Below are positions 1 to 43,024 of a DNA stretch of 43,693 nucleotides, piece by piece. The stretch lies in the IMG/VR virus record IMGVR_UViG_2698536506_000010; one strand, written 5' to 3'. How positions within the stretch are numbered: the stretch's first letter is position 1; the number at the start of each line of letters is the position of its first letter. The DNA is from a virus. Lineage: Duplodnaviria; Heunggongvirae; Uroviricota; Caudoviricetes. The notes below the pieces were generated by a model. It saw only the letters and a program-made list of their open reading frames with translations, searched no databases and was not told where the DNA came from. Made by a program: the position numbers and the translations under genes.

Positions 1-216
1 TTATTGGTTATCCGCTTTAGAAGCATTGACCTGATCTTCCCATGATGCGATCTCAGATTCCCGCCAGCGCTTAGGGTTGCCGGGAATCGTTGGTTTAGGG
101 AAGGGGCAGGTGAAGCTCGAAGGCATGCGCGCCGGTGTACTCCAAAAGTACAGCGTACTCCGGGAAATTTTGTATCGAGCCAGGATGTCACTGGTAAACA
201 AGATGCCGTCATTCAT
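1..216 (-). CDS. xis: Excisionase / AlpA-family HTH DNA-binding protein (71 aa)
   Basis: Motif ...SRSTLYFW...FPKP...G...RWRESEIASWED typical of AlpA/Xis HTH proteins; GGAG RBS upstream of ATG at 216; sits at the left edge of the prophage where int-xis is expected. Confidence 0.6.
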   Translation of the reverse strand: MNDGILFTSDILARYKISRSTLYFWSTPARMPSSFTCPFPKPTIPGNPKRWRESEIASWEDQVNASKADNQ

Positions 217-325
217 TATTCTTTACTCCAGGCAAAAAAATGCCCTCGCAATGGAGGGCAAATGGGGGATAACGTGGCAGTGCATTCGCACCCAATAGCC
301 AGCTCATAACTGGCTATCAGTTACG

Positions 326-550
326 TCATGATGTTGGTGGTTTCGGTAGAGGTATCCAGTGCGTTACATTAATCGGATACCATTCGATGCCGTAGTTTTG
401 CTCATACACCTGAGCGTACCAGCCGTCGCCTTTGGGATGGCATTCGCAGTACTGACCAATATGCAATTCAACGCCAAATTCTGGGCGTGGCCAGATATAG
501 ACAAAGTCATCGTCCTCCGGTAATCGCTCACTACAAGGCACCCATTCCAT
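326..550 (-). CDS. DUF551-like phage protein (74 aa)
   Basis: Trp/Pro-rich small protein (EWVPCSERLPEDDD...WYPINVTHWIPLP) resembling DUF551 phage proteins; GAGGAG RBS before ATG at 550. Confidence 0.55.
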   Translation of the reverse strand: MEWVPCSERLPEDDDFVYIWPRPEFGVELHIGQYCECHPKGDGWYAQVYEQNYGIEWYPINVTHWIPLPKPPTS

Positions 551-559
551 AATATCTCC

Positions 560-799
560 TCATGCCGCCCGCATAGCGCGGAGGCGTTTTAAGTGTTCTG
601 CTGTTTCGATTTCTTCGGCGATCCGCTCAGCCTGTGCTTTGGTAAGCGGCTCGAATTCATGCTGAAAGCGGCCCATGCTGGCGATACAGGTGCGACCGTT
701 TCTGATGTAGTGGATGACTTCGTTGGTAGCGCGGAGGATTTTGCAGGGCGCCCCGTGGGGATCTGCGTACCAGGTATTAGGCTGGATTATCCTGAACAT
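560..799 (-). CDS. Hypothetical phage protein (79 aa; start taken at internal ATG)
   Basis: Track ORF 560..865 starts with an alternative codon; internal ATG at 799 has an AGGA RBS and reduces the overlap with the upstream gene. Confidence 0.4.
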   Translation of the reverse strand: MFRIIQPNTWYADPHGAPCKILRATNEVIHYIRNGRTCIASMGRFQHEFEPLTKAQAERIAEEIETAEHLKRLRAMRAA

Positions 800-1124
800 T
801 GGCTGATTCCTGCAAAAGGAGGTAGACGATTGCCACGGCGCGAAGTGGGTTACGATGGATAACACTAATTCCAGATTCGTGGGATGCCTGCCATACCGTC
901 TTACCTGATGGGGAAAGTCCGATCCGGTGTTTCTTCATTACCGGGAAAAGCTCTTCAGCACGACGCAGCGGGAAATAACCGGTGTTCTGTACTGTGTTGA
1001 ACCAGTTCCATGACAGATTGGCGCCGGTAGTTTCATGCGGGTGAATGGTGGCGCTGTATTTTGGCTTGAGGAAATAGGCCAGCCTGACGCTAATCTCCCC
1101 ATCACTCAATTTGCTGTAATCCAT
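777..1124 (-). CDS. Hypothetical phage protein (115 aa)
   Basis: ORF in the early-left operon; ATG at 1124 overlaps the stop of the TraR-like gene (translational coupling). Confidence 0.45.
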   Translation of the reverse strand: MDYSKLSDGEISVRLAYFLKPKYSATIHPHETTGANLSWNWFNTVQNTGYFPLRRAEELFPVMKKHRIGLSPSGKTVWQASHESGISVIHRNPLRAVAIVYLLLQESANVQDNPA

Positions 1125-1345
1125 CACATCCTCCCAATCTTCTTACGCAACTCCATATTGCTCTGGCACTCCACACACATCGTGCATCCCGGATACGCTT
1201 TCCTGCGCTCATTGCTTAGCTGATCACCGCATTCCTCACAGTGCGTTGCTGATACTGCTGAGTGGTTGAGTCTGTGAGCCTGAATAGCATGGTCGCGCAT
1301 CATCTCTTCGAGAGCGCTGGCCTGGTCGATGATTTCTGATGTCAT
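1124..1345 (-). CDS. TraR/DksA-family C4 zinc-finger protein (73 aa)
   Basis: C-terminal CEECGDQ...CTMCVECQ four-cysteine motif typical of phage TraR/DksA zinc fingers; ATGA overlap with the upstream ORF. Confidence 0.6.
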   Translation of the reverse strand: MTSEIIDQASALEEMMRDHAIQAHRLNHSAVSATHCEECGDQLSNERRKAYPGCTMCVECQSNMELRKKIGRM

Positions 1346-1524
1346 TTGCGACTTCTCCTGCGTTTTTTGGCTGCTCGGCGTGCTGCTGCAATACCCGTCT
1401 TCCCGCCACCAACTGGATAACTGGCATCCATACGTAAAGCAGGAGATATTTCAGAGAAACTCCACGATTTTATTGACGCCATTGACGCGCCGATAAGAGC
1501 TATTGTGTTTGTTAAATGCTTCAT
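1342..1524 (-). CDS. Hypothetical small protein with basic C-terminus (60 aa)
   Basis: GGAG RBS before ATG at 1524; stop overlaps the TraR-like start. Confidence 0.4.
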   Translation of the reverse strand: MKHLTNTIALIGASMASIKSWSFSEISPALRMDASYPVGGGKTGIAAARRAAKKRRRSRK

Positions 1525-1625
1525 CAGTGCTCCATGAACTGTCGGTTAATTCGGTTGAAGGTGAACGCGAGAAAATAAAAAGGCCGACATAGCGACCTTG
1601 TGATTCGTTTGGTTAGCGTCATCCG

Positions 1626-2378
1626 TCATACCTCAAATGCTAACTGAGGGGTAAATCTGTCCCGTTCTGCATCGTAGTCAAGGGAACTGGCGCTGTTATA
1701 GGACTCTATCCTTTCCACGAGTACCGCGGCGCGTGTCTCTTTACTGGCCGGAGCGTATGCTGATTTATCCCATGCTTTGTCGATACCGATGTTTCTGGCG
1801 ACGTTCGTGCTGTCAGCTGAAGATAGCGGGATGTGGCGGAATATGTCGGCGTTCAACATGCGCAGGCCGTGAAGCTTTGTTATCGGATAACCGTTTATGT
1901 CGACAACGTGACGGATGAGATCGCGTAACTTTGCCCGACATGAGCGCGGGCGCTTCGCGTCGTATTCACCCATGCTACCGATGCATACGCGCGGAAATTC
2001 CCGACACAGGCGGAAGAAACGTTCATCGGGCTCGTTCATGTGCCACACCGGCGCGCCGACTACTTTGCCGTGCGGCCACTCCGCGATTAACGCGTCGTTC
2101 TCTTCACTGGTCCCGCCAATAACGTCAGGGATAACAGCAAAAGCAAAGCGAGGGTGATTCATCCAGCGGCCTACAAACGCGTAGTAGTCGTTCCAGTTAA
2201 CAACACGCTTTTTCGTCCAGAAACTGAATGCGCCGTTATCCAGCGCGAAAGACTGGGTGACTTCGCTGGCAAGGGCTAATTGACCGGGGTTAGCGAACGA
2301 GATGAAAGCGTGCCTGCCTTTCCATGCCTTCAGGGCGCATGTGTCCGGCGTAATTGGGCCGCCGTGAAAATGAATCAT
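1626..2378 (-). CDS. tRNA-guanine transglycosylase-like (DpdA-like) protein, candidate 7-deazaguanine DNA-modification enzyme (250 aa)
   Basis: Contains ALDNGAFSFW (compare TGT catalytic motif LTDSGGFQ) and SSADSTNVARNIG (compare TGT FDCVxPTRxARNG); strong AGGAGG RBS; located in the recombination operon. Assignment by recalled motifs only. Confidence 0.5.
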   Translation of the reverse strand: MIHFHGGPITPDTCALKAWKGRHAFISFANPGQLALASEVTQSFALDNGAFSFWTKKRVVNWNDYYAFVGRWMNHPRFAFAVIPDVIGGTSEENDALIAEWPHGKVVGAPVWHMNEPDERFFRLCREFPRVCIGSMGEYDAKRPRSCRAKLRDLIRHVVDINGYPITKLHGLRMLNADIFRHIPLSSADSTNVARNIGIDKAWDKSAYAPASKETRAAVLVERIESYNSASSLDYDAERDRFTPQLAFEV

Positions 2379-2523
2379 GCCGCCTCCTGCCTTTCCCGAT
2401 ATTCCTCAGCGAGCCGCTGCGCCTTTAAGGGATTGCTGACCACTTCACCCCATGGCATTAGCCAGCCGTTACCAATGAAGGGGAGGCACACAGTGCCAAC
2501 CCTGATGTCGTCGTGAGCGTGAG

Positions 2524-2952
2524 TCATAGGATGGACTCCATTTCGTCGATGTAGAGGCCCTGAGCAATCAGGCGGCGACGGCGGGCGGCACGTTCAATGC
2601 ACTCCTGCCGTCTTCCTTCCTGCGATTGCTGAATGGCGCGCCGGGTGAACAGGCGCGATTTTCCTTGCGGCGTTACAACCTTTGGCTTGCTGGCCAGGCT
2701 AAATGCCCGGTCGCAGATGCCGTCTTCGTTGATCCATTTTTCCGACTCAACAATCTGCGCTATCTGTCCGGTACCGCGGGTGATGCCGTTGGCTACCCGG
2801 TTAAACTCAATCAGCGTTACGCCAAACTTCTCAGCGATTTCGCTGCCGGTGACCGGGCGGCCGCGCGTCTGAATCATCCAGATAACGCGCTCACGTAGGC
2901 CTGAGAATTGCCCAGTTCGCCCGGGCCTGCGGTAGAAGGGGGTGCGTTTCAT
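2524..2952 (-). CDS. Hypothetical protein, possible HTH DNA-binding (142 aa)
   Basis: ATG at 2952 overlaps the exo stop (ATGA); segment [21 protein letters not shown] resembles a helix-turn-helix. Confidence 0.45.
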
Positions 2953-3629
2953 TTCCACTGTTCCCCGAACGTGAATCCGATCTCCGCCAGCGCCTCGTCC
3001 ATCTTCTCGATGAACTCCGGCACCATTTCGTTGAAGAGGGACATGTACTGCGGATCCCGCTCAATGACGACGTGGTGAATGCCTTCGCGCTTCATGCGCG
3101 GGTCGTAGTTGGCAAAGAACCAGGCGTCTTTTCCGGTTACCCACATGCTGTACTGCACCTGGGCCATGTACGCAGACTTGATGGCTTCGAAACCGCCAAG
3201 GCGGAATTTCATGAAGTCACGGGAGGTGAACGGGCATTTCAATTCGAGGCCGAAATCGTTACTGCACAGGCCGTCAGGGGAGCACGCGGTGCGCATGCTC
3301 TCGTCACGGAACAGGATCGGAGACTCCGTGACTTTCACGTCTGTGGTGAACTCGAAGAGGGTACGGGCGTCTTCCTCGTACTGCTTGCCCCAGGCCAGCG
3401 CCTTGGCGTTAACCTCTGGCGCGACGCCGGTGCATACCTCGGCGAGCAGCGTGTGGAAGTAGGACATTTTCATGTCTGTCCACTTCTTCCCAGATCGTGG
3501 CTTGGCGATGACGTTGTGCACTTCAGAGGCTGTGATAACGCCGAGGCGCAGCCGGTGCCACGCCTCATCGCCCTGTTGAATAGTGGTTACGTCAATGCCG
3601 GTGCGGGCAAGGATAATTTCTGGTGTCAT
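2949..3629 (-). CDS. exo: Lambda-type exonuclease (Red-alpha / YqaJ family)
   Basis: Near-identical over long stretches to lambda Exo ([61 protein letters not shown]); start placed at MTPEIIL to match the lambda Exo N-terminus. Confidence 0.9.
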
Positions 3630-3630
3630 G

Positions 3631-3918
3631 TCAGCAGTCCTTATGGTCATCCCACGGTCCGAATCCACCCACGTAAACGAAACCTCTCGATGGATCGCTC
3701 ACATGTGTTTCGCGCTGTAGTCGCTCAATTGAATTTCTGTCAATTGCCGCCTGGCGCATCTCAAGTGACTGATGACCTCTGCGACGACCATATTGCTTCC
3801 AATAGGCAGCGCAGGACTTACTGCAAAACTGTGCCCATCCTCTTTTTCGATCAGCAACGCGGGCCATGAATTTGTCCGGGCAACACTTGCAGGTCACTTC
3901 AATGGTTTTCCCAGTCAT
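3631..3918 (-). CDS. Small cysteine-rich (zinc-finger-like) protein between bet and exo (95 aa)
   Basis: CKCCPDK...CSKSC cysteine cluster; ATG at 3918 overlaps the bet stop and the ORF ends 1 nt before the exo start. Confidence 0.5.
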
Positions 3919-4760
3919 GCTGCCGCCTTAGCTTTTTTCTGAAGGAAGTTGAAACCTTTCTGTGCCTCTTCTTCAGTGAGGTCTGACGCCTCAAGAATTG
4001 GCCGTTTGAAGATGTCGCTGCACACTGGGAGGAAGTCTTGCTCCCAGTCTTTATTCAGCGATGTTAAGAGATCGGTTATCGCCTGAAGCGTTTCTTCACT
4101 TGCAGCTGGTGGAAGCGTTTCTGTGGTGTTGCGCGGCGCGACGTCTCTGATATCTACGTCCAGTGATTTGCCTTCCATTTCTTCGGCGGTAGGCTGCTGT
4201 CCAATCTCAGGCCATGCCTTACGCAACGCCTGGGCTTCCGCGCATTTCGCCAGCTGTCCGTATGGGCGCTTTTTCCACATCGCGTTCGGCGCCGTGGTGT
4301 CGCGGCCGCCGGTGGCATAGTTCTCAATCCAGTATTCTTTGGCGCTGAACTCGACGATCTCTCCACTGGGCATGCGCTTGTAGACGGTGTATTTGCACCA
4401 CTGAGGGAAAGTCACTTCGACACCAGTAAGCGTCTGAGTAACGTCAGGGCCGAACTCTGGTTCGCGGGCGCCGGCATAATCGCCGGAACGATCTGCCTGA
4501 ATACGGTAAAGCCCGATTCCCGGCATGACCACGTCGCGCCAGTCGCCTTTACCTGTTTTCGAGTCTTTGACGTACATCGGAACAAGGTGGACAGGTTTGA
4601 GCAACGGGTCGAGCTGGCGGGCGCGGCAGTAATCAAGCGCCATCATTACCGATTCGTCTTTGGCGCCAGGGTAGATGCTGTTCTTCAGTGCACTCCAGGT
4701 GGAGACGTCGACGCCTATCTCCTGAAGCGACTTCGCTGTGATTGTTAATTCGTTTGCCAT
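3915..4760 (-). CDS. bet: Bet/RecT-family single-strand annealing recombinase (Red-beta-like C-terminus)
   Basis: C-terminal region (LQAITDLLTSLNKDWEQDFLPVCSDIFKRPILEASDLTEEEAQKGFNFLQKKA) closely matches lambda Bet; gam-bet-exo order; start at ATG 4760 with GAGGGG RBS (track start at 4775 is TTG). Confidence 0.8.
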   Translation of the reverse strand: MANELTITAKSLQEIGVDVSTWSALKNSIYPGAKDESVMMALDYCRARQLDPLLKPVHLVPMYVKDSKTGKGDWRDVVMPGIGLYRIQADRSGDYAGAREPEFGPDVTQTLTGVEVTFPQWCKYTVYKRMPSGEIVEFSAKEYWIENYATGGRDTTAPNAMWKKRPYGQLAKCAEAQALRKAWPEIGQQPTAEEMEGKSLDVDIRDVAPRNTTETLPPAASEETLQAITDLLTSLNKDWEQDFLPVCSDIFKRPILEASDLTEEEAQKGFNFLQKKAKAAA

Positions 4761-4778
4761 CGTTAATCCCCTCAAAAA

Positions 4779-5063
4779 TTAAAACGGGCAGCCGGTACGG
4801 TGTTCCCAGTCGTATTCTGCCTGGGCGTAAGCAACTGCCGAAATGAAATCGTTGTAGGCCTCGCCAGCTTTATCGCTGCGAAGTCCTTCGTATGGGCTGG
4901 AGTCAATCGGAACCGTGAAGTGGAAGAGGCCGGACGGCTCTTTTGGCATCATGTCGATGATTTTCTGCGCCCGGTCGTCGATCCACTTCTCTTTCTCGTC
5001 GGTGAGCTGCTGCTCAACCCAGCGCCGATCTTCGATGCGGTCGTAAGTGAGGTATGCGTTCAT
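4779..5063 (-). CDS. Gam-like protein (putative RecBCD inhibitor) (94 aa)
   Basis: N-terminus MNAYLTYDRIEDRRW resembles lambda GamS MNAYYIQDRLEAQSW; sits immediately upstream of bet as in lambda. Confidence 0.45.
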   Translation of the reverse strand: MNAYLTYDRIEDRRWVEQQLTDEKEKWIDDRAQKIIDMMPKEPSGLFHFTVPIDSSPYEGLRSDKAGEAYNDFISAVAYAQAEYDWEHRTGCPF

Positions 5064-5070
5064 GGTTGCC

Positions 5071-6042
5071 TCAGTAATGAATTTTCGCGCAGGGGATCAG
5101 GTCATCTTTCAGAGCGGTAAGCACTTCGATAGCCTGCTCGCGGGTTAAGCTGGTTTGGCTGGTGAGCGCGTTAACGATGTTGGTGCCGACCGTTTTGCGG
5201 TGCTTCACATCGGCTTCACGTTTTGCCTGCTCATCGGCGATTCGCTTCTCTTCTGCCAGGCGTTTCTCTTCTGCCTGTTTTGCTTTGAGGCGCTCAGCTT
5301 CCACTGCCGCAGCTTTTTCTCTTTCCGCCCGGGCTTCTGCTTCCTGCTTCTCGCGTGCCGCACGCTGTTCCGCTTCAATGCGCTGGCGTTCCGCCAGTTC
5401 AGCGCGGGCTTTCTCTTCTGCTTCACGGCGCGCTGCGGCTTCAATCTCCGCTTTGTGCTTCGCTTCTGCATCTCGGCGGGCTTGCTCTGCCGCCTCCTGC
5501 TTCAGCCGCTCGTCACGCTCGCGTTGAGCCTGTTCCGCCAGGCGGCGCTGCTCTTCGCGTTCACGGTCAAACTTGTCATTCATCAGCAGAGCCATTTCGT
5601 GGTCTGCTTCGAACTGAATAGCCCGCTGTAGATCGATGCTCTCGTTCATGACCAGCGCTTCGGCGTGTAGCGCGTTCATGGCTTCTTCAGCCTTGATGCG
5701 TTCCTGCTCGGCTTCCCATTCGGTTAGAGGGCGGCGGGTGGCATCTCGCAACTCGTCGCAGGCATCAACGAATCGCTTAATTTCGGCCTCAGCCGGACGC
5801 ACAGCCTCTTTCAGTCGCTTCAGGTACTCACGGCCAGGCTTTTCGATTGCCGTCTTACTGCGGGACACCTGCGCCGCCAGAGAGGCGACACGATCACGGC
5901 CTTTCTTCGTGGACAGGTCCGGCACTTCGCTTACTGCCTGGCGGATTTGCTCGAGATAAGCATCAAGGCCGCCAGCTACGTAAAGCACTGGCGCCTGTTC
6001 CGACTTTATTTCGATGACAGTTAAGTCCGTTACTTCGCTCAT
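5071..6042 (-). CDS. Phage coiled-coil protein (DUF1351-like N-terminus, Ala/Glu/Arg/Lys-rich repeats) (324 aa)
   Basis: Start at ATG 6042 with AGGAGA RBS; long AEQARRDAEAKHKAEIEAAARREAEEKARAELAERQ-type low-complexity coiled coil. Confidence 0.6.
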   Translation of the reverse strand: MSEVTDLTVIEIKSEQAPVLYVAGGLDAYLEQIRQAVSEVPDLSTKKGRDRVASLAAQVSRSKTAIEKPGREYLKRLKEAVRPAEAEIKRFVDACDELRDATRRPLTEWEAEQERIKAEEAMNALHAEALVMNESIDLQRAIQFEADHEMALLMNDKFDREREEQRRLAEQAQRERDERLKQEAAEQARRDAEAKHKAEIEAAARREAEEKARAELAERQRIEAEQRAAREKQEAEARAEREKAAAVEAERLKAKQAEEKRLAEEKRIADEQAKREADVKHRKTVGTNIVNALTSQTSLTREQAIEVLTALKDDLIPCAKIHY

Positions 6043-6118
6043 GGTTTCTCCTGAAATTTGGATGTGCAGATCCCGCCCGCATTGAGCCAGGCCGATCGGT
6101 TGAATAGGGTGGTTGGTA

Positions 6119-6325
6119 TCAGTGAACCATCGGCTCGCCGCGCTCATTCAGCAGCACAACGACGGAATCACTTTTGATGATGGTTTTTTCGAAGATGTTG
6201 AAGGCGTACAGGCCTTTCTCAACGTTCGCAGAGGCGCGATAAGTTTTGCCGTGGTGTTGCAGCATTGTGCCAGGTAAAACCTCGCTACGTGGCACTGATG
6301 CGGTGCCGTAGTGCATTCCAATCAT
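6119..6325 (-). CDS. Hypothetical small protein (68 aa)
   Basis: GAGGTGAAGG RBS before ATG at 6325; start overlaps the stop of the unlisted upstream ORF. Confidence 0.4.
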   Translation of the reverse strand: MIGMHYGTASVPRSEVLPGTMLQHHGKTYRASANVEKGLYAFNIFEKTIIKSDSVVVLLNERGEPMVH

Positions 6326-6480
6326 ACCTTCACCTCTACCTGTACCAGGAGGCCAGCCATATGCATCTGCCAGCGGTTAAGCGTCAGCTTTTCACGCGGT
6401 GCCGATACGGACGTCAGCTGCCACTCGTTATCGTTGAGCTTTTTGGCGGTGTACTTCTTTCCGTTATGGGTGACTGTCAT
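6322..6480 (-). CDS. Hypothetical small protein (52 aa), not in the ORF track
   Basis: Read from sequence: MTVTHNGKKYTAKKLNDNEWQLTSVSAPREKLTLNRWQMHMAGLLVQVEVKV; both ends overlap neighbouring genes in ATGA fashion. Confidence 0.3.
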   Translation of the reverse strand: MTVTHNGKKYTAKKLNDNEWQLTSVSAPREKLTLNRWQMHMAGLLVQVEVKV

Positions 6481-6725
6481 GATGCCTCCCGCTTTTCTTT
6501 GATGTCGGCGCGGAGGTGAATCTCTTTCCCATCAGCTGTCGGGAATATCAGGATGTCATCGCGAACCGCGAGAAGATGGGCCACTGCAAATAGCGCCTCG
6601 TCTGTGACATCAAATTTCTCACCGGTGAACTCGCGAACACCGGGCGCCAATTTGCTCGGCTTTGAACGACCCGCGAAAATTCGCTTCGTCAGGCCTGTAA
6701 AACCTACTGTGATTGGGTTGCTCAT
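6477..6725 (-). CDS. Hypothetical protein (82 aa)
   Basis: AGAGGA RBS before ATG at 6725; first gene downstream of the putative tL1-like terminator. Confidence 0.45.
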   Translation of the reverse strand: MSNPITVGFTGLTKRIFAGRSKPSKLAPGVREFTGEKFDVTDEALFAVAHLLAVRDDILIFPTADGKEIHLRADIKEKREAS

Positions 6726-6844
6726 AAATCCTCTTGGCCTTATCGCGGCGAACGGAACGGTTAATACAAGACTTCTGCGCTAATGGGCGGTGGATGGCCG
6801 CCGGTTGTCATAACTAAGCCGCCTCGGTGAAGCGACTGAGGTAT

Positions 6845-6869
6845 GAAAAAAGCCGCTGGTTAGGCGGCT
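6845..6869 (-). terminator. Rho-independent terminator (tL1-like) on the minus strand
   Basis: Stem AGCCGC/GCGGCT with a 7-nt loop, followed on the minus strand by a U-run (plus-strand AAAAAA at 6845-6850). Confidence 0.45.
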
Positions 6870-7239
6870 ATTGATTGAAATTAAATGAGCGGGGAGATAT
6901 TTGGCTTGCAGCCCTGCAAAATGTGCTATCAAGGAATTGATACTTATGTCGCCACACTCTGCCGCGCTGATCACCATGCTTTGCACAATCAGGTCGGCGC
7001 ATCATGGTGAAATGAACCACTGTTTCGCTTGTAGCTTTAGGTTTACGCATGCTCTTACCCTCTGTCGTTACCCGCTGATGCGGGAGAAATGCTTTGTGGT
7101 GCAGCGCCGGGTGCTTATCTTCCGGTTGCCGTCGATGCAGCTGCAATTCACTGCACTACAAAACATTCCAGTTATTGCCGGGGTATTTATCCGCGCCCGG
7201 CGCGCGCTTTCCCGCTATTCCCCAACAGCAAGAAATCGC

Positions 7240-7581
7240 TTACTCTTTAAGCTCCCCAACAGTAGAAAGGATATGTTCATGCAAACCATGCGGACCGTGT
7301 GCCCTGACTGCGGAAGTGAGATGTTCAACCAGCCCGATGATTTTGACTTTGAGACAAATTTCACCGGCGTCAGTTGTGCTGACTGTGGTCGCGAAATCAC
7401 TAAGGACGATGTTGTCAATCAGGCCACGGACACGGTCAAAAAACAGATCGACGACATGCTCAGGAATTCCCTGAAAGGAGCTGGCTGGAAGTTCAAGTAA
7501 CTTTAAAAGCTCCCCGGTCTGGGTAAGCACTTCGCTGGCGTCTACATTGAGCAGTAGTGGCGCCATTTTTTTATCTGACAT
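7240..7581 (-). CDS. Hypothetical protein in the N-antiterminator position (113 aa); mutually exclusive with 7273..7500 plus
   Basis: First ORF downstream of the OL/pL region, GAGGGG RBS, followed by the 6845..6869 terminator; but no Arg-rich N-terminus like lambda N. Confidence 0.3.
   Translation of the reverse strand: MSDKKMAPLLLNVDASEVLTQTGELLKLLELPASSFQGIPEHVVDLFFDRVRGLIDNIVLSDFATTVSTTDAGEICLKVKIIGLVEHLTSAVRAHGPHGLHEHILSTVGELKE
7273..7500 (+). CDS. Alternative call: small zinc-ribbon protein (75 aa) antisense to the N-position ORF
   Basis: Two CxxC pairs (CPDCG...CADCG), AGGA RBS, protein-like sequence; same codon register as the minus-strand ORF, so composition cannot decide between them. 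Confidence 0.3.
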   Translation: MFMQTMRTVCPDCGSEMFNQPDDFDFETNFTGVSCADCGREITKDDVVNQATDTVKKQIDDMLRNSLKGAGWKFK

Positions 7582-7777
7582 ATACACCCCTCTGATTGTT
7601 TACCGTCAGCCCCTCGCAAAGAGCTGCTGGTAAATCGTTTAGCCATAATTGCCGCTCTTCCTGAGCCCGCCTATGGTCCGACGCATGGTTTACTGTCGCG
7701 CCGTTCGACTGACCGAATCTCCACTTCGCCGCTGGCTAACTTCGCTCAGCTGTCGATGTTTCGTTTCGATGGGGTAA

Positions 7778-7854
7778 ATTTAGCGTGATGCTAAATTATG
7801 CGCAATAGCAAAATGCTAAATTGTTGAATGGTTTTATTTAGCGTATTGATTAAT
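7778..7854. promoter_or_regulatory. OL operator cluster (three 19-bp palindromes) with leftward pL
   Basis: ATTTAGCgtgatGCTAAAT (7778-7796), cAATAGCaaaatGCTAAAT (about 7803-7821), ATTTAGCgtattGATTAAT (7836-7854); the same half-site recurs in OR. Confidence 0.6.
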
Positions 7855-7892
7855 AAGCGATTAAAAATTTACAGCGAAGGAATTCGGGACGT

Positions 7893-7916
7893 AAAAAAGC
7901 CCGCGCGATGGCGGGC
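7893..7916 (-). terminator. Rho-independent terminator downstream of the repressor gene
   Basis: GCCCGC-gcgatg-GCGGGC hairpin with flanking A/T runs, 20 nt after the cI stop. Confidence 0.5.
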
Positions 7917-7936
7917 TTGAGGGGTTTTGCGTGAGG

Positions 7937-8614
7937 TTATGGGATGTTTAGTATTTTGGCATCAACCACAACGCCGATGATTTTGCAGTTTCCATTAATT
8001 TCTAGCATTGGATATGCGGGGTTAAGGGGCTTTAGGAAGCGTCTGCCGGCATCGATTACAAGCTTCTTAAAGGTCGCTTCGTTATCGCCTTCTAGCTTCG
8101 CGACAACCAGCTTTCCGTTGCGCGGCTCGACTTCAGGATCAACAAGTATCGCTGCTCCCTCGGGTATGCTCAGTCCAGCCGGGGAGGTCATAGAATCCCC
8201 TTTAACGTCCAGCCAGAATGAATCTTCTGAGCAGTCAACAGTCGTGTCATACCAGCGATCTATCGCTCTTCGGTGATAAGGTTCTACAGCTTCCATCCAT
8301 TGCCCCGCGCTTACCCAGCTGATTACAGGATAACTTCCTTTTGTCTCGTTCAGTCCTCGAAATGCAACGTTCGAAGGTTCTTCACTGGCGTGTAAAACAT
8401 CCATCCAGCCAAAAGGCAGATCAAGCGCAGTTTCAATTTTGCGAGCCATCTTATCGCCGATATTGCGATGAGGGTTTGGTCCCAGTAGCTGGCTAAGCGC
8501 AGCCGGACTTGTCTCGATGAGCTCGGCAAACTGCGCTTTGGTCATTCCAGACTCGTGCTGACGCTTCTCGTACAGCGCTTCCAGGTTGGCTTTTCTGATT
8601 TCTTTATTTTCCAT
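7937..8614 (-). CDS. cI: CI-like prophage repressor (N-terminal HTH, C-terminal S24/LexA-like peptidase domain) (226 aa)
   Basis: HTH region (MTKAQFAELIETSPAALSQLLG) plus S24-type C-terminus (GDSMTSP...GKLVVAKLEG); divergent from the cro-like gene with operators between; start placed at internal ATG 8614 to leave the operator region non-coding. Confidence 0.8.
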   Translation of the reverse strand: MENKEIRKANLEALYEKRQHESGMTKAQFAELIETSPAALSQLLGPNPHRNIGDKMARKIETALDLPFGWMDVLHASEEPSNVAFRGLNETKGSYPVISWVSAGQWMEAVEPYHRRAIDRWYDTTVDCSEDSFWLDVKGDSMTSPAGLSIPEGAAILVDPEVEPRNGKLVVAKLEGDNEATFKKLVIDAGRRFLKPLNPAYPMLEINGNCKIIGVVVDAKILNIP

Positions 8615-8631
8615 ACCTGCATTGTTACTGC

Positions 8632-8699
8632 TTTTAGCAAAATGATAAATGTGCAAATTGCTAAATGATGCTTGCGTAGTATTTAGCATAACGCTAAAC
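8632..8699. promoter_or_regulatory. OR operator cluster with divergent pRM and pR
   Basis: TTTTAGCaaaatGATAAAT (8632-8650), a GCTAAAT half-site (8660-8666), ATTTAGCataacGCTAAAC (8681-8699); candidate pR TTGCGT-N17-TAAACT reading toward cro. Confidence 0.6.
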
Positions 8700-8730
8700 T
8701 CCAAATCAAACGACTCACCCGGAGACACCA

Positions 8731-8964
8731 ATGAGAACTGAACTACACCGCTGGCGCAAGGCCGCCACTACCGACGAATGGGCGCAGCTCGCAAAGTTGG
8801 CTAACACGACGCCAGGTTACCTGGACCAGATCGCCTACGGAAATCGCCGGGCATTTCCAGAAATGGCATCTGCTATCGAGAAAGGCACGAAGAATTTTCA
8901 CCGCCAGGCTCCGGTCCTAAAAGAAAGCCTGGTATTCGCATCGCCGCGTGATACTGCGGCCTAA
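8731..8964 (+). CDS. cro: Cro-like HTH regulator (YdaS-family resemblance) (77 aa)
   Basis: First rightward gene after OR, GGAG RBS; motif AKLANTTPGYLDQIAYGNRR...PEMASAIEKGTKN resembles YdaS/Cro-type HTH proteins. Confidence 0.65.
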   Translation: MRTELHRWRKAATTDEWAQLAKLANTTPGYLDQIAYGNRRAFPEMASAIEKGTKNFHRQAPVLKESLVFASPRDTAA

Positions 8965-8981
8965 CCACGAAAGGGAAAGCA

Positions 8982-9527
8982 ATGCATTCACTTGCGTATC
9001 AACAAGGTAACAAATTTTCGCCAACGGCGATGATTTACCAGAATCGCCGGGAGCCTGATTCCGCGGCGTTAAACATCGATGGGATCCGCGCTGCTGTTCG
9101 CGCCTGGGCAGCTGATTGCCGAAGCCGTGAATTTGTCGCCGCGCTGATCGTGGAAGAGTGGCGGGCGTCCGGCGGAACCGGTCTAGATATCCCGACTGAC
9201 TCGCACCGCCAGATGCAGAAAGTGTTTCGATGGATTGATGGCGATACCGAATACGCCGCCAACAACATTCGCCAGCTGGCCCCGGCAATCATGTCGGTCC
9301 TGCCGCTGGAGTACCGAAACCGTCTGGCGCCGCAGAACGACACGATGTCGCTGATCGCCTCTGCGATGAAAGAGTGTGCCGAGGCTAAACAGGCCGTGCT
9401 GCTGGACGCTCCAGAGCATCAGAAGCTCAAAGAGGTAAGCGAGGGTATAGCGTCGCTGTTCCGCCTCATGCCGGAGCAGGTAGGACCGCTGATGACGATG
9501 GTTACATCGATGCTGGGGGTTATATGA
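8982..9527 (+). CDS. YdaT-family protein in the cII position (181 aa)
   Basis: Pattern WRASGGTGLDIP...QKVFRWIDGDTEYAANNIRQLAPAIMSVLPLEYRNRL matches recalled E. coli YdaT; immediately follows the YdaS-like gene. Confidence 0.55.
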   Translation: MHSLAYQQGNKFSPTAMIYQNRREPDSAALNIDGIRAAVRAWAADCRSREFVAALIVEEWRASGGTGLDIPTDSHRQMQKVFRWIDGDTEYAANNIRQLAPAIMSVLPLEYRNRLAPQNDTMSLIASAMKECAEAKQAVLLDAPEHQKLKEVSEGIASLFRLMPEQVGPLMTMVTSMLGVI

Positions 9528-37334: not shown

Positions 37335-39311
37335 ATGGCTACGACACCTACCAACCTGTCAGTACCGAGCGAGTCCCCCCGCGATCTGAAATTTAACGCA
37401 GGGAAAATTGATGAATTTGTGACATCGCTGGCACTTCAGTACATTGATCGCTTTGGCAATGCTCATTACACCATCGAAGGCCTGCGCTGGATGGCGCAGC
37501 AGGCTATTTCCCAGTATGGGTGGGTTCCGATCGGAACATTCCAGGATGGTGCAACATTAACTCTGCCTAACCAAATCCTGAAAGACACCACCGACGGTGA
37601 ATACTATCGCTGGGACGGTTCATTTTTGCCATCAGGGAAGGTTGTGCCAAATGGTTCTACGCCAGGATCAACAGGTGGGGTTGGTGTAGGTGCATGGATA
37701 AGTGTTGGTGATTCGGCATTGCGCTCAATGCTTGCTTCTGAGCAAGGAGTTTCCATGGTTGGCGGCATTGCCATGGAGCTCGACTCTCAGGCCGATTTGG
37801 CAACAAACACAACTGTTCAGGGACGGCTGGTGGCAGTAAAGAACACTGTCGGTAGTTACAATAAATACTCCATAATTCCAAACTCTGGTGTGCTTGGCGA
37901 TGGCGATGTAATCATCGACAGGGTGGATGGATTGCAGGCAGAGCTTCAGATTGAAGGGGTTCTGGATGTACGGGCTTTTGCAAAGTCTGGTAGGACAGAC
38001 CAACAAATAATTCAGGCGGAATTAGATTACGCTGGATCTAAATCAGGTCATTGGGTTGTTGGCTTGACGGCCAAAGATAAAACCGGAACACCATGGAGAT
38101 TCAGCACACTTAACGTACCTGACAGCACTGTTTTTCAGGGGCATGGTGGCGCTCTTAAGCTAAATGACAATGTCTGTGTCGATGCTTCAGTTAGCTATTA
38201 CTTGCTGCATAACATAAACGGCAATGATGTATGGCTGGACGGGTTATATATCGATGGCAATATGAGCAATAACTCCTTGTTCACCGTTGCTGATCTTGTA
38301 ACCCTCATCGGAGAAGGGTCAAAAATCACCAATTGCACCCTTATGAATGCCCCCGACTCTGGTCTAATGTTCTCAGGTGTAAAGAATGGTCTAGCGTCTG
38401 CAAACACCATCGGCAATGGCAGAGATGTTGCTATCTATGCAAATGCAAGCGCAGACGGCAGCGCAAGGAACAATGTGTTATCTGACAATGTTCTGTACGG
38501 ATTCCCGGCAGGAGGAATAGGATTTAAACGTTATTTTGCTGATTGTGTAGCCAGCGGGAACGCAATTTATCTCTGTGGAAACGGCGTGACATTTGAGGAC
38601 TTTACTGTTGAGACCGAAGGTAAATTCCCCAAAAGGATTACGCTGTCTGGTACTTTTATGCGAGACATCGGCTTTCCACACCGCGCCACTGCTAACGTAG
38701 CAGAGCGAGGAATTAGCATTCAGCGTGCCTCTGATATCAGCATCACTGGTCTTCAGACAGTTAACGTTTCTGGCAATATATTATACATTGGAAATGGCAC
38801 AGATATCTGCGTTGATAACGCCATGCTTAGAGGTTATGTTGCAAGTCCACAAAGCAACGGAAATAACGGAGTGCTAGTCGTTAATGCCCAAGGAGGGCAC
38901 CTGAGTAATGTGAATGTTACCGCAGTGGCAAGCAGGGCAGGATATTTCCAGACCGTTAATGGCATGTCCGTTCGTGGCGGAAGATGGGTCAGTTCAGGGA
39001 CTCAGTCTGGCATCAGGGTAGATGCTACCGCTCAATTTTCAATATTTAATCCTGACTATATTTCTGGTGGATCTGGAGCTGACGAAGAGTGGTTTGAAGG
39101 AGCAACAGGGATATCGAACGGATACATCCGGGCTAATGCAACAGGCCCAGGCAGATACGGAATAAGAGAGCTTTCTGCTGGGCAGGGCACTAACCCAAAT
39201 ACAAGGCTTATCCCCAGATTTATTGGAGAGAAATGCGTTACCTTGTCAGATAGCGCAATCTGGATGGCAAAAGGTATGTCTAACTCTGATTGGGTTAAGT
39301 TATCTAACTGA
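37335..39311 (+). CDS. Tailspike / receptor-binding protein with beta-helix polysaccharide depolymerase-like domain (658 aa)
   Basis: Gly/Asn/Ser/Val-rich repeats (NAIYLCGNG, ITGLQTVNVSGNILYIGNG, NGNNGVLVVNAQGG) typical of right-handed beta-helix tailspikes; lower GC in the C-terminal two-thirds. Confidence 0.65.
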   Translation: MATTPTNLSVPSESPRDLKFNAGKIDEFVTSLALQYIDRFGNAHYTIEGLRWMAQQAISQYGWVPIGTFQDGATLTLPNQILKDTTDGEYYRWDGSFLPSGKVVPNGSTPGSTGGVGVGAWISVGDSALRSMLASEQGVSMVGGIAMELDSQADLATNTTVQGRLVAVKNTVGSYNKYSIIPNSGVLGDGDVIIDRVDGLQAELQIEGVLDVRAFAKSGRTDQQIIQAELDYAGSKSGHWVVGLTAKDKTGTPWRFSTLNVPDSTVFQGHGGALKLNDNVCVDASVSYYLLHNINGNDVWLDGLYIDGNMSNNSLFTVADLVTLIGEGSKITNCTLMNAPDSGLMFSGVKNGLASANTIGNGRDVAIYANASADGSARNNVLSDNVLYGFPAGGIGFKRYFADCVASGNAIYLCGNGVTFEDFTVETEGKFPKRITLSGTFMRDIGFPHRATANVAERGISIQRASDISITGLQTVNVSGNILYIGNGTDICVDNAMLRGYVASPQSNGNNGVLVVNAQGGHLSNVNVTAVASRAGYFQTVNGMSVRGGRWVSSGTQSGIRVDATAQFSIFNPDYISGGSGADEEWFEGATGISNGYIRANATGPGRYGIRELSAGQGTNPNTRLIPRFIGEKCVTLSDSAIWMAKGMSNSDWVKLSN

Positions 39312-40572
39312 AGTCAGGCCGCTGATGCGGCCTTTTCTCTGATAAAAACTGATTTATTAACTGCATAGTGTAAATAAGCATTAATACTTGAAAAACGAAA
39401 AGTACTCTCTTGCCTGAGCCATATGCTGAAGGCGAGAACATAATCATCATCACTGACGCACACGCCAGGAGAATGGTGAAACAACTGTAAAATGCATCAT
39501 TTTTACACCTGGCATTAAAAACTGCGAGGCATATCATTGAACTAATTGTCAGTAGAGTCACTGCGTGAGATATGTAAACAGTAGTTCCAGCCCAATTACT
39601 TCCTGATAGATAATTAGAGTTTACCATTCCTTTGAATATATTCGCCCCAAGGAGAAAAGATAAGAACATTATTAATTTTACGGCTACAATCGCAGCCGAA
39701 ATTGATGGCAGGACTTTAAAATCTTTTCTTTTCACATAGAGTAACAACAAAGTAAGCATAGCGATATTGATTAGTACGTTGCCAGAAGATGATACGTGAC
39801 TGCTTAAGACATCCACACCTATTGATAGTTTTTGAAAGATGCCATAGCTAACGTAATCTGGAAGCCAGTTTTTTGACTCACTAAAATATCTTAACTTATT
39901 ACCGGGAGCAGAAAAAAGAATAATGGCGCAAGCAATAGTTGTAACGAACATTGCGGCTATGATTGGAGTTATCCTTTTGAGATAGATAGCTCTGCATGCT
40001 AGAAATATCAAGAAGCAGATAGATATCTGTTCGTTGAACCCAAAGTACATAGCAGGTAAAACAGAGAGTGACTTAAGTATAATATTTAATGATTTCTCGT
40101 TAAGTACTGCATAAACAGACAGTAGGCAAAGAGTTGCTGGCATTAGATAGTTATATGACCCTGCGATCCACCATGATGCATCCGCATTAACTTCAGGTTC
40201 TATTAAGAAAAACATAAATAAAGAAACTGTGAAAGGAATCATCGCTCCTTGCTTTTCTCGAAGAGTTATCTTACTTATAATAAAAGATATCAAAATAACA
40301 CATGCTGGTATGAAAGTTTTCCAAAAGTATTCATAACGTATTGTATAGACCATGAGAGCATCTATAGTTAATCTCCCACTCCATTTTATATATCTGTCAT
40401 ATATAACATCATATACATTAGAGTTTAAAAGCAAGCGTGAGAAATTTAAATCATCTCCTGAGTGACGCAAGGATAAACCAGAAAAAAGAAATGCAATAAT
40501 AGCGATAATAAGCATGGCGGCAGTGACTTTTATGGCCACTATCATTTTATTTGCATTGGTAATGGATTTCAT
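39304..40572 (-). CDS. Polytopic membrane protein, putative serotype-specific component of the O-antigen modification operon (422 aa)
   Basis: Many predicted transmembrane segments, very AT-rich, last gene of the gtrA-gtrB operon; overlaps the upstream ORF by 26 nt in another frame. Confidence 0.5.
   Translation of the reverse strand: MKSITNANKMIVAIKVTAAMLIIAIIAFLFSGLSLRHSGDDLNFSRLLLNSNVYDVIYDRYIKWSGRLTIDALMVYTIRYEYFWKTFIPACVILISFIISKITLREKQGAMIPFTVSLFMFFLIEPEVNADASWWIAGSYNYLMPATLCLLSVYAVLNEKSLNIILKSLSVLPAMYFGFNEQISICFLIFLACRAIYLKRITPIIAAMFVTTIACAIILFSAPGNKLRYFSESKNWLPDYVSYGIFQKLSIGVDVLSSHVSSSGNVLINIAMLTLLLLYVKRKDFKVLPSISAAIVAVKLIMFLSFLLGANIFKGMVNSNYLSGSNWAGTTVYISHAVTLLTISSMICLAVFNARCKNDAFYSCFTILLACASVMMIMFSPSAYGSGKRVLFVFQVLMLIYTMQLINQFLSEKRPHQRPDFS
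39316..39340 (+). terminator. Rho-independent terminator after the tailspike gene
   Basis: AGGCCGC-tgat-GCGGCCT hairpin followed by TTTCTCT. Confidence 0.5.
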
Positions 40573-41011
40573 AATTATGGAGTCCGTCGTTAATCAATAT
40601 AGCAATATTGCCAGTGAATTTTTTAACCTTTTTGTTTCTTACTTGAGAGTTAAACCCAGAGCGATCATAAAGCAATGGTTTTCCAAAAGCTCGACTTACA
40701 TCACTTCTTCTGGTCATTGACTTGGGTATGCGCAACCATTTATCTCCGCCTATGCCAGCATAGATATTAACACTATAAAGTGTTTGCAAATTGTAGTTTT
40801 TTACTGCTGCCCAACCATTAACTACAAGTCTGCCGTCCTCAACCCGGCATCTATCTATATGATATATAATTCCTGAACTTGTTTTAGCATTGTCAAATTT
40901 AAATGTCGAAACGTCTGCTTTGTTAATATAAAAATAAAAGCCAGCAGGCAACATAATAGATGTTACAAACAATCCGACAAGTAATGTTTTTACAGGTAGT
41001 GAGACCTTCAT
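40547..41011 (-). CDS. Membrane-anchored protein (154 aa), possible N-terminal part or partner of the serotype-specific component
   Basis: N-terminal transmembrane helix then soluble domain; ATG overlaps the gtrB stop. Confidence 0.4.
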
Positions 41012-41925
41012 CCTTTCCTCTTCAAAATATATCTAGGACGGCTCTTTACTTCGGTGTAAATTCTTCCGATGTACTCACCAAGCACCCCGATACCAATCAA
41101 TTGGACTCCACCAAGGAAAAGGATAGAAACAAGAAGTGACGGGTAGCCCCGCACTGCGTTACCAAAAGCAAGGGTATCAACTATCATCCATGAGCCATAG
41201 AGGAGCGCCACGCCTGCAACCAGAAGGCCGATGTAAGTCCACATGCGAAGCGGGAAAGTAGAGAAACTCGTGATACCCTCAAGTGCCAGGTTCCACAACT
41301 TCCAGCCGTTAAATTTCGTACTTCCTGCGACGCGTTCTGCGCGGGCATATTCAACGACATCTGTACGGCCGCCAACCCAGCTCAATACGCCCTTCATGAA
41401 CAGGTTGCGCTCTGGCATGAGCTTAATGTTTTCCACCACCTCGCGGGACATAAGGCGGAAGTCACCAACGTTTTCTTCAATCTTCGGGTTGCTGATTTTG
41501 TTGTGCAGCTTATAGAACCATTCAGCGGTCTTGCGCTTCAGTCTGCCATCTGTAGAGCGATCAGAGCGTTTAGCGAGAACCATATCAGCACCGGCCTGCC
41601 ATTTCTCGATAAGGTGAGGAATGACTTCGATAGGGTCCTGCAAGTCTACGTCAATCGGGATAATTGCTTCACCGGTCGCGTGGTCAAGGCCGGCGAACAG
41701 GGCTGGTTCTTTCCCAAAGTTACGAGTAAATGACAATGGAACAACAAGCGTATCGGCAACAGCAAGCGCGTTAATAATTGATTCTGTCGCGTCTTTGCTG
41801 CCGTCATTGATGAATACTATCTCGACTTCATGCTGCTGAAGGCCTTCAAATTCCCGAACCGTTTTATAAAAAATCGGTATCGCGTCTTCTTCGTTGAAGA
41901 CGGGAACGACCAGAGAAATTTTCAT
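41008..41925 (-). CDS. gtrB: GtrB-like bactoprenol glucosyltransferase (GT2 family)
   Basis: GT2 hallmarks ([25 protein letters not shown]), C-terminal transmembrane helices, length about 305 aa; coupled to gtrA. Confidence 0.85.
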
Positions 41926-42284
41926 TTCGCATCCCTAAAGACAATAAACTTAGAATAGAAAAAGCCACATACAAGACTAATGGCGGAGAACGCCACCAGT
42001 GTGACGATTGGCGGTAAGCCACACCTGTCAGCAGCCCAACCTACAGCAGCACTCAGCGTTCCCATAAACCCAACGTAAAGCATGTAACGCAGCGTGGAAG
42101 TGGATGCTTTAAAAGTGAAGCGTGCGTTAGCGTAGAAACTAAAGCTGACGGCTACCACGAAACCTGCAAAGTTAGCCAATGCCTGACTTGTGGATAGGCC
42201 ATACACGCAAACACCAAACACGACCCAGTGAATGAGTGTGTTCAGTACGCCAATCGATGTGTACTTAGCAAAAAGTTTTAACAT
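41922..42284 (-). CDS. gtrA: GtrA-like flippase for bactoprenol-linked glucose
   Basis: About 120 aa, four predicted transmembrane helices, begins [20 protein letters not shown] as in GtrA-family proteins; first gene of the operon. Confidence 0.8.
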
Positions 42285-42399: not shown

Positions 42400-42639
42400 A
42401 TGCCGCGTCGTTCAGATATCGTGATCGCCTTCAGAGCCTCTATTGTGCATGAAAGGTCAGGCCGCAGGATTGTGAAAACTGCTGATTTTGTTCAGGAACT
42501 ACTAAAGGTCAACTGGGACCTAAGTATGGAAGAGGCGAATCAGTGGATAGATAGGTACACAACCTGCTTCAAAGACATCACTCCTGACCACGGAGAGAAC
42601 AAGACGTGGTTCATGTACAACCCGAATGGAGGGCTTTGA
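42400..42639 (+). CDS. Hypothetical SOS-regulated small protein (80 aa)
   Basis: First ORF after the LexA box; stop lies 1 nt before the UmuD'-like start; no family recognised. Confidence 0.4.
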   Translation: MPRRSDIVIAFRASIVHERSGRRIVKTADFVQELLKVNWDLSMEEANQWIDRYTTCFKDITPDHGENKTWFMYNPNGGL

Positions 42640-42640
42640 T

Positions 42641-43024
42641 ATGGCATTTGCATCCCCGGCTAAGGACTATGTGGAGCGCGGCATCTCTTTAGATGCTGAG
42701 TTGATTAGCCATCCATCGGCGACTTACTATGTCAGGTCTGATGTGGCTATTTTGCGTGCCGGCATTAAGCAAGGCGCGCTGCTTGTCGTGGACTCAGCAG
42801 TAAATCCATGTGATGGCTCGATCGTTCTCTGTTCCATCGATGGCCAGTTTGTCCTGAGGTATTACCGTATGTTCCCATGCTTGCATCTGGAGAACATGGA
42901 GACAGGTCGGAAGGAAAGGGCGCGCGGACTCGACGACGGAAGTGCAATCGATGTTTTCGGCGTGGTGACATACATCATTAACAATGCGCGCACCGGTGAA
43001 TTCGACGACAACCCGGTTATTTAA
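42641..43024 (+). CDS. UmuD'-like protein (HumD-like), pre-truncated and lacking the Ser/Lys catalytic dyad (127 aa)
   Basis: Aligns with E. coli UmuD from about residue 25 (SPAKDYVE..., HPSATYYV, LLVVDSA, DVFGVV); Ser60 and Lys97 positions are Ala/Val and Arg; GGAGGG RBS. Confidence 0.65.
   Translation: MAFASPAKDYVERGISLDAELISHPSATYYVRSDVAILRAGIKQGALLVVDSAVNPCDGSIVLCSIDGQFVLRYYRMFPCLHLENMETGRKERARGLDDGSAIDVFGVVTYIINNARTGEFDDNPVI

Follow-up and report, generated by a model that had tools for sequence, protein, structure and literature searches.

A solo DpdA-like gene in the recombination operon of a lambdoid prophage: a candidate for the insertion of host-made 7-deazaguanine into DNA

Can a phage without genes for the synthesis of 7-deazaguanine bases place such a base in DNA by means of a single transglycosylase? 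The question is raised by the Caudoviricetes record IMGVR_UViG_2698536506_000010 (43,693 nucleotides; "the window" denotes this whole stretch), a lambdoid serotype-converting prophage in which an intact open reading frame (ORF) of 250 amino acids, the dpdA-like gene, closes a chain of recombination genes. A preliminary description of the locus had seen in this ORF an enzyme of the tRNA-guanine transglycosylase (TGT) or DpdA kind, located in a Red-type operon and lacking its own precursor pathway, and that core reading gains weight from the links reported below to catalogued and characterised phage DpdAs. It is likely, in our estimate, that the protein is a solo phage DpdA, a zinc-less and minimal TIM-barrel relative of TGT, which during lytic growth would introduce 7-deazaguanine made by the host into DNA, at low density.

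1626..2378, minus strand: dpdA-like gene, 250 amino acids, candidate solo phage DpdA-family DNA guanine/7-deazaguanine transglycosylase (family-invariant Asp47, His170 and Asp189; near-invariant Asp85, His113 and Gly134)

Family placement and predicted active site

The 250-amino-acid protein is matched by PHROG 887, named 'queuine tRNA-ribosyltransferase', with E 9.7e-95, and has 6230 homologues at E<=1e-3. A tblastn search of GenBank phages returned 107 records, with identities of 98% for Klebsiella phage KO-TP1, 86% for Shigella phage SfI (YP_009147480) and 68% for Salmonella phages SPN3UB and BTP1, and of 36%, 36% and 34% for the remoter HK106, Pantoea phage MED16 and Salmonella phage 7-11 (E 6e-28 for the last). 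The MED16 DpdA, for which its authors reported an HHpred probability of 99.2% against T. maritima TGT, aligns with the protein at every motif in pairwise BLASTP (36% identity over 198 amino acids, E 4e-44). Hutinet et al. 2019 (Supplementary Data 1) enter five of these phages, SfI, SPN3UB, BTP1, HK106 and 7-11, as having DpdA and no other gene of the pathway, and the same survey describes a singleton-DpdA cluster specific to gamma-proteobacterial phages. The connection with an enzyme of validated activity is established through phage 9g DpdA, which gives E 1e-7 in pairwise BLASTP and, when compared by hhalign with a profile of 58 family sequences, a probability of 98.3% (E 1.2e-14), the paired motifs of the window family and 9g being LDNGAFS and LDSGAFS, PVWH and PCFH, KLHGL and KVHGF (with 9g His196), and ADST and CDSS. 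Judged by sequence, the protein belongs with the phage DpdAs.

An AlphaFold2 model built on the 58-sequence alignment (pLDDT 93.4, pTM 0.89) contains eight strand-helix units and predicts a TGT-like (beta/alpha)8 barrel. When known folds were ranked against the model, the order was as follows, the margin of Cap10, DpdA and the TGTs over generic TIM barrels being modest:

Rank 1, Cap10: 16.0
Rank 2, DNA preQ0 insertase DpdA (7ui4): 15.0
Rank 3, archaeosine TGT: 14.0
Rank 4, bacterial TGT: 13.7
Rank 5 onward, generic TIM barrels: 13.3 and below

A Foldseek search of viral models (BFVD) gave 30 matches at E<=1e-3, many of them phage 'queuine tRNA-ribosyltransferase' and the rest unnamed.

Both motifs quoted in the preliminary description are present in the protein, ALDNGAFSFW at residues 45-54 and SSADSTNVARNIG at residues 186-198. 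Asp47, His170 and Asp189 are invariant in alignments of 58, 37 and 10 sequences, which include the proteins of 9g, MED16, 7-11, HK106 and a Caulobacter phage and reach down to 18-32% identity; Asp85, His113 and Gly134 are nearly so, Asp85 (in IPDVI) being conserved in at least 90% of the clade. In the model the conserved residues are located at or just beyond the C-terminal ends of strands 3-8, and the C-terminal strand ends are the usual catalytic face of a TIM barrel. His170 aligns with 9g His196 in the KxHG motif, and His196 is the conserved histidine of DpdA families described by Hutinet et al. 2019. Two aspartates are essential in bacterial DpdA, Asp95 as general acid/base and Asp256 as nucleophile, and the base is read by Asp130 (PMC10164549), the counterpart of which in TGT is Asp156. 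From motif, order and strand-end position we infer that Asp47, Asp85 and Asp189 would correspond to Asp95, Asp130 and Asp256, respectively. The likeness of the two motifs to those of TGT stands as far as the invariance of Asp47 and Asp189 is concerned, and their equivalence with the TGT catalytic aspartates follows by the same inference. The assignment of Asp85 meets a difficulty in 9g DpdA, which has no aspartate in the same column, the nearest being offset by three columns. Neither the zinc site (CxCxxC...H) nor the C-terminal subdomain was found in the protein, which ends about 60 residues after strand 8 and has only four cysteines (14, 124, 131 and 146), none of them conserved.

The slot behind exo

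The early region of the window is 99.5-99.7% identical to that of a prophage of E. coli FDAARGOS_1277 (the sister prophage, L002), and the two differ precisely at the dpdA-like gene. Rightward of position 2375 they are 99.5% identical, and the identity ends exactly at the stop of a DUF1317 ORF and the start of dpdA; comparison of window 1524-2378 with L002 4329-6746 shows what occupies this slot in the sister prophage, namely a dcm pseudogene, the gene of a Dam-like N6-adenine methyltransferase and two small ORFs, and homology resumes at 1524-1608, in a terminator-bearing intergenic segment. The slot is filled in phi80 by a damL (Dam) pseudogene, KO-TP1 has an MT-A70 gene and another methyltransferase gene downstream of its DpdA gene, and in P2-like prophages Dam and the DpdA homologue are adjacent or fused. 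The same association was found among 80 related IMG/VR loci (67-99% identity), examined out of at least 531 viral contigs with a homologue by a search built from 13 closer sequences: an MT-A70, PF05869 Dam or D12 Dam gene is directly adjacent, on the same strand, in 23 of them. The dpdA gene is cargo that is exchanged for the orphan DNA methyltransferases found in the slot in sister phages, and so clean a cassette exchange supports the view that lambdoid phages have a general DNA-modification locus behind exo.

Several other observations concern this slot. The intergenic segment of about 100 bp at 1523-1622 looks like a conserved module boundary, its identity being 98% with the Salmonella P22-like phages S9-5 and vB_SalP_ABTNLsp11242 and 87% with the sister prophage, which also bears an ISEcp1-blaCTX-M-32 insertion. 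In P2/186-like prophages (L010, 8001-9266; L060, 3936-5545) the DpdA homologue follows a D12 Dam gene and precedes the GPA replication gene. In 19 of the 80 loci (among L017-L096, for example L047 10898-12094) the next gene encodes a 398-amino-acid fusion of a PF04447 dATP/dGTP pyrophosphohydrolase with DUF551.

The gene order on the minus strand is exo, a 142-amino-acid ORF, the 50-amino-acid DUF1317 ORF and, last in the chain, the dpdA-like gene, with an ATGA stop/start overlap at all three junctions. The elements of this operon are:

1580..1599, minus strand: terminator-like hairpin (7 pairs) followed by TTTATTTT, 27 nt past the dpdA stop (hairpin scan and sequence reading)
2375..2527, minus strand: 50-amino-acid DUF1317 ORF, with an ATGA overlap with each neighbour (Pfam PF07026, E 4e-16; PHROG 1998)
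2384..2389, minus strand: Shine-Dalgarno AGGAGG, 4 nt ahead of the dpdA ATG, within the end of the DUF1317 ORF (sequence reading)
2524..2952, minus strand: 142-amino-acid ORF (ATG at 2952), named 'regulator' in relatives, its ATG overlapping the exo stop (PHROG 1680, E 6e-77, aligned from residue 3)
2949..3668, minus strand: lambda-Exo/YqaJ-family exonuclease (exo), longest ORF, stop at 2949-2951 (Pfam YqaJ, E 3e-31; annotated 'lambda exonuclease family protein' in the sister prophage)
3915..4775, minus strand: RecT-family single-strand annealing protein, 'Bet' in the relative (Pfam RecT, E 9e-28; PHROG 2449; sister prophage annotation)
4779..5063, minus strand: GamL-like host-nuclease inhibitor, completing the Red-type Gam-Bet/RecT-Exo set (matches gamL of the sister prophage through the 99.5% identical alignment)

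The start of exo in the RefSeq relative is at the position equivalent to 3629, and an alternative GTG start at 2958 would extend the 142-amino-acid ORF to 144. The coupling and the strong ribosome-binding site noticed in the preliminary description are borne out by the ATGA overlaps and the AGGAGG sequence, and to the arrangement it gave has to be added the separate DUF1317 ORF, which it did not list. The helix-turn-helix character it attributed to the 142-amino-acid ORF is weakly backed, the Pfam HTH_11 match (E 0.0025) reaching 18.1 bits for a cut-off of 25 bits. Downstream of dpdA come a 60-amino-acid ORF, a DksA/TraR zinc finger and a NinX-like protein (Pfam, PHROGs). A consensus scan found no promoter-like site belonging to the dpdA-like gene, and sigma-70 promoter-like sites on both strands of positions 1-9000 numbered 0, for 6.1 (standard deviation 2.3) expected from shuffled sequences. 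The base composition at the gene shows no anomaly, and an Rfam scan of the window found no RNA family.

The small ORFs upstream of dpdA had been put forward as possible accessory factors, an idea that was rejected because each side occurs without the other. Two phages, phi80 and CobraSix, and the sister prophage, where a methyltransferase replaces DpdA, have the 142-amino-acid ORF and DUF1317 together with exo and no DpdA; conversely, most DpdA homologues lack them, DUF1317 standing directly ahead of the gene in 25 of the 80 related loci and the 142-amino-acid ORF being present in 11. Both are part of the exo module and are not specific to DpdA.

The organisation of the operon also bears on the idea that the gene is the modifying component of a prophage-borne defence, in which resident DNA is marked and a linked nuclease attacks unmarked invaders. 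Bacterial DpdA acts in this manner, and at low modification density, and in KO-TP1 a weak PD-(D/E)XK-like ORF follows the DpdA gene. This ORF (174 amino acids; L001 3882-4409), located between the DpdA gene and the two methyltransferase genes, gives a weak PDDEXK_5 signal just below the Pfam cut-off, or a homing-endonuclease-like one, and has a homologue in none of the 80 related loci. The window itself has neither a DpdB-like ATPase nor a nuclease beside the gene, and a PADLOC scan of four local proteins was without a match. Moreover, no promoter-like site belongs to the gene itself and its coupling is with recombination genes of the lytic phase, for which reason it is expected to be shut off in a lysogen. 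A defensive role of the resident prophage appears very improbable.

Two further ORFs of this region, both on the minus strand, are recorded here. Between RecT and exo, at 3631-3918, lies a 95-amino-acid cysteine-rich ORF with a weak zinc-domain match, where the RefSeq sister prophage leaves a gap. At 5071-6147, a 358-amino-acid protein has a long, highly charged C-terminal half, rich in E, A, R and K and repeat-like; it has no significant Pfam family and is hypothetical in the relative.

Precursor supply, proposed reaction and alternative readings

The absence of preQ0 (7-cyano-7-deazaguanine) synthesis genes from the window, noted from the start, holds as far as it was tested: tblastn with FolE, QueD, Gat-QueC and QueE of phage 9g gave a best E of 0.066, a Pfam scan of 28 window ORFs found no such gene, and the annotated sister prophage has none. 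Absence of 7-deazaguanine genes is the hallmark of the recognised 'DpdA only' group. The hosts of these phages possess the complete pathway, Clostridium and Mycobacterium excepted, and it is present in the Enterobacteriaceae. The DpdA of 9g, expressed alone in E. coli, produces about 790 dPreQ0 (the deoxynucleoside of preQ0) per 10^6 nt in plasmid DNA, and DpdA2 of nt-1, also alone, 926-1607 per 10^6 nt in the wild type and 0 in a queD mutant. More distant relatives of the window protein are also found in contact with the pathway: a homologue with 45% identity overlaps the next gene downstream, of the YhhQ/Vut_1 family of preQ0 transporters, in four contigs of different samples, in Caulobacter phage DMCA a QueD (6-carboxytetrahydropterin synthase) gene lies directly ahead of the homologue and abuts it, and one metagenomic protein joins PTPS (QueD) to DpdA. 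On the expression data for 9g and nt-1 and the pathway content of the hosts, supply of 7-deazaguanine to a solo DpdA by the host is feasible. No experimental test of a lambdoid or prophage solo DpdA was found in the literature.

The proposed course of events would begin with transcription and translation of the gene together with those of Gam, RecT and Exo, from the early leftward operon, after induction or infection. The enzyme would bind double-stranded DNA, and Asp189, positioned by His170, would attack C1' of the target deoxyguanosine and displace guanine, with Asp47 as general acid/base. The covalent enzyme-DNA intermediate would be resolved by N9 of a free 7-deazaguanine base, in a double displacement as in TGT and DpdA. 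As the phage has no synthesis of its own, the incoming base would have to be drawn from queuosine synthesis in the host, and would most likely be one of preQ0, the QueC intermediate ADG (7-amido-7-deazaguanine) and preQ1 (7-aminomethyl-7-deazaguanine). The result would be a sparse, post-replicative substitution, at a sub-percent share of G, in phage DNA and in other DNA of the cell, presumably with the purpose of changing how the defence systems of the next host see the DNA. This anti-restriction role, which the preliminary description had ascribed to solo DpdAs, is the weakest step of the proposal and cannot be taken as established, since in the measured relatives dADG (the deoxynucleoside of ADG) amounts to 0.13% (MED16) and 0.02% (7-11) of G and in MED16 it made no visible difference to the restriction enzymes tested. 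Host glycosylases that attack deazaguanine DNA have been shown in recent work.

Several observations count against a solo DpdA with this activity. Scans of the protein with Pfam (E<=0.1) and NCBIfam gave no match, the Pfam TGT model PF01702 does not reach its gathering score, and none of the four local proteins scanned is matched by the PADLOC models, DpdA included. Searches of PDB sequences with phmmer, and with hmmsearch using the 58- and 37-sequence profiles, returned only chance matches to GCN4 and designed repeats (E>0.08); E. coli Tgt, as a single sequence, was paired with the family profile by hhalign at a probability of 0.7%; and Foldseek against the PDB found generic TIM barrels only, none at E<=1e-3, with the archaeosine TGT at rank 41. 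The Pfam, PDB and PADLOC negatives are weak and reflect limits of the methods, because the validated 9g DpdA is also without a Pfam or PDB sequence match and its PADLOC DpdA match is marginal (E 0.02). On the genomic side, homologues of FolE, QueD, QueC, QueE and YhhQ occur within 10 kb in none of the 80 related loci, and the fusions with Dam and QueD are found in one contig each, lack the first barrel strands and may be deletion products; the Dam fusion, of 421 amino acids, is without the first 40 residues of the barrel. The use of these fusions as strong Rosetta-stone evidence was for that reason rejected, and they count only as evidence of adjacency. Finally, the nearest measured phages contain dADG, not dPreQ0, at very low levels, the dADG of MED16 had no visible effect with the restriction enzymes tested, and Hutinet et al. 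2019 consider that the gamma-proteobacterial singleton cluster may be functionally diverged.

This last remark, together with the lack of precursor genes in the window and in the 80 related loci, favours a TGT-like fold kept for another substrate or reaction, such as base exchange in host tRNA, transfer to a protein as by Cap10 of type IV CBASS, or excision as a glycosylase, possibly in counter-defence. Such a divergence is nevertheless unlikely. The window has no CD-NTase and no Cap9/QueC-like partner; the zinc subdomain and the C-terminal or tRNA-binding extension of TGT are missing from a protein of 250 residues with four non-conserved cysteines; the strongest sequence similarity is to DpdAs of phages with deazaguanine in their DNA; and the genomic partners are DNA methyltransferases, YhhQ and QueD.

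The low levels measured could also mean that the enzyme is of DpdA type and effectively silent here, free preQ0 being scarce, modification negligible and the gene a neutral cargo carried along by cassette shuffling. The DpdA-only mycobacteriophage Orion is unmodified, the values for 7-11 and MED16 are those given above, with no restriction protection in the latter, and the slot turns over fast, leaving pseudogenes in relatives (damL in phi80, dcm in the sister prophage). Yet the host of Orion lacks the pathway and the Enterobacteriaceae have it, in E. coli the precursors of the host do serve 9g DpdA and nt-1 DpdA2, the ORF is intact and of full length, its catalytic residues are strictly conserved among thousands of homologues down to about 30% identity, and a homologue is kept in 300 of 5426 complete E. 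coli genomes. Taken together, these data make a silent enzyme quite unlikely, and a low-density insertion of host-made base by a solo DpdA remains the preferred reading.

On an elaboration of this reading, solo DpdAs of the enterobacterial clade would do with a deazapurine what orphan methyltransferases do with a methyl group, leaving a sparse, sequence-specific dADG or dPreQ0 mark from a base of the host QueC pathway (possibly ADG) that is read as 'self' by hosts with Dpd-type restriction or serves as an epigenetic signal. We regard it as a doubtful proposal. If true, it would explain the presence of dADG in solo-DpdA phages without DpdC, and the low level of modification would be design and not failure.

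Distribution and comparison with known systems

Public contigs labelled E. coli include 98 with the identical protein, in every case under the name 'hypothetical protein', and the homologues in the 300 complete E. coli genomes, recovered by a distant-mode search, all carry the same name; megablast of the dpdA-like gene against complete E. coli genomes returned nothing. The solo DpdA kind is already catalogued, and this gene is a further, ordinary member of it and no novel kind, since the 2019 survey counts a protein of 86% identity among the DpdAs and the family has a name in PHROGs. A gene that is common and of a family known since 2019 matters little on its own. What is added here for the clade is the exact methyltransferase cassette exchange, the frequent methyltransferase adjacency, and the links to YhhQ and QueD. 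As RefSeq, Pfam and NCBIfam leave the protein 'hypothetical', thousands of prophage genes that probably place 7-deazaguanine in DNA go unlabelled. The lambdoid members, with tractable phages and hosts, are convenient for studying solo DpdA activity, the choice of base (dPreQ0 or dADG) and the effect of sub-percent modification.

Away from the early region, the window carries an O-antigen glucosylation cassette comprising gtrA (PF04138), gtrB (GT2), a 154-amino-acid ORF and a 422-amino-acid DUF6056 membrane protein, with a beta-helix tailspike adjoining (39304-42284, minus strand, and 37335-39311, plus strand). Its layout is that of serotype-converting phages such as SfI, itself the owner of a DpdA homologue. 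The right end (42626-43693) has an S24 (UmuD/LexA-like) peptidase ORF and an SRAP/YedK-like ORF, the latter cut off by the end of the window; both could belong either to the prophage, as cargo, or to the flanking host DNA.

Among known systems the closest are the DpdAs of SfI, SPN3UB, BTP1 and HK106 (group 3 of Hutinet 2019), of the same length and with 86%, 68%, 68% and 36% full-length identity, which like the window belong to temperate lambdoid or P22-like phages without preQ0 genes. The order in SfI matches that of the window, with gam-bet-exo, a small DUF1317-like ORF and dpdA, then xis-int, and with a gtr serotype-conversion cassette too; the window differs from SfI-type phages in the extra 142-amino-acid 'regulator' ORF upstream and in the RecT-family recombinase, and in nothing essential. 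The DpdAs of MED16 (gp38) and 7-11 are homologues at BLAST level, with all motifs aligned, from phages that also lack preQ0 genes and rely on the host, but these phages are virulent and the C-terminal 50 residues of their proteins are unrelated to the window protein. The DpdA of 9g (DpdA1), the validated DNA preQ0 insertase, shares the LDxGAFS, H(G), KxHG and DS(S/T) motifs, His196 included, and equally has no Pfam TGT match and no zinc motif, whereas its identity is only about 20% and its 317 amino acids include N- and C-terminal extensions.

Bacterial DpdA (PDB 7UI4) and the TGTs have the conserved acidic residues in the same order at the strand ends, but at 7-14% identity and with no sequence-profile match, and the window protein is without their large Ins8/zinc subdomain, a DpdB partner and restriction genes. 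In place of the neighbours of the bacterial Dpd system (DpdA with the DpdB ATPase and DpdC-K), those in the window are recombination and small phage genes; in the same way, type IV CBASS combines Cap10 with a CD-NTase and the QueC-like Cap9, whereas the window has no QueC-like sequence and the neighbourhood is a lambdoid early-left operon. The orphan methyltransferases (Dam of phi80 and P2-like phages, MT-A70 and PF05869 Dam of lambdoid phages) occupy the same slot, are exchanged as a cassette and often stand adjacent to the DpdA gene. Their fold is unrelated, and they transfer a methyl group from S-adenosylmethionine where the DpdA would exchange a base for a deazapurine; the logic presumably shared by both is that of a self-contained DNA mark made from a host metabolite.

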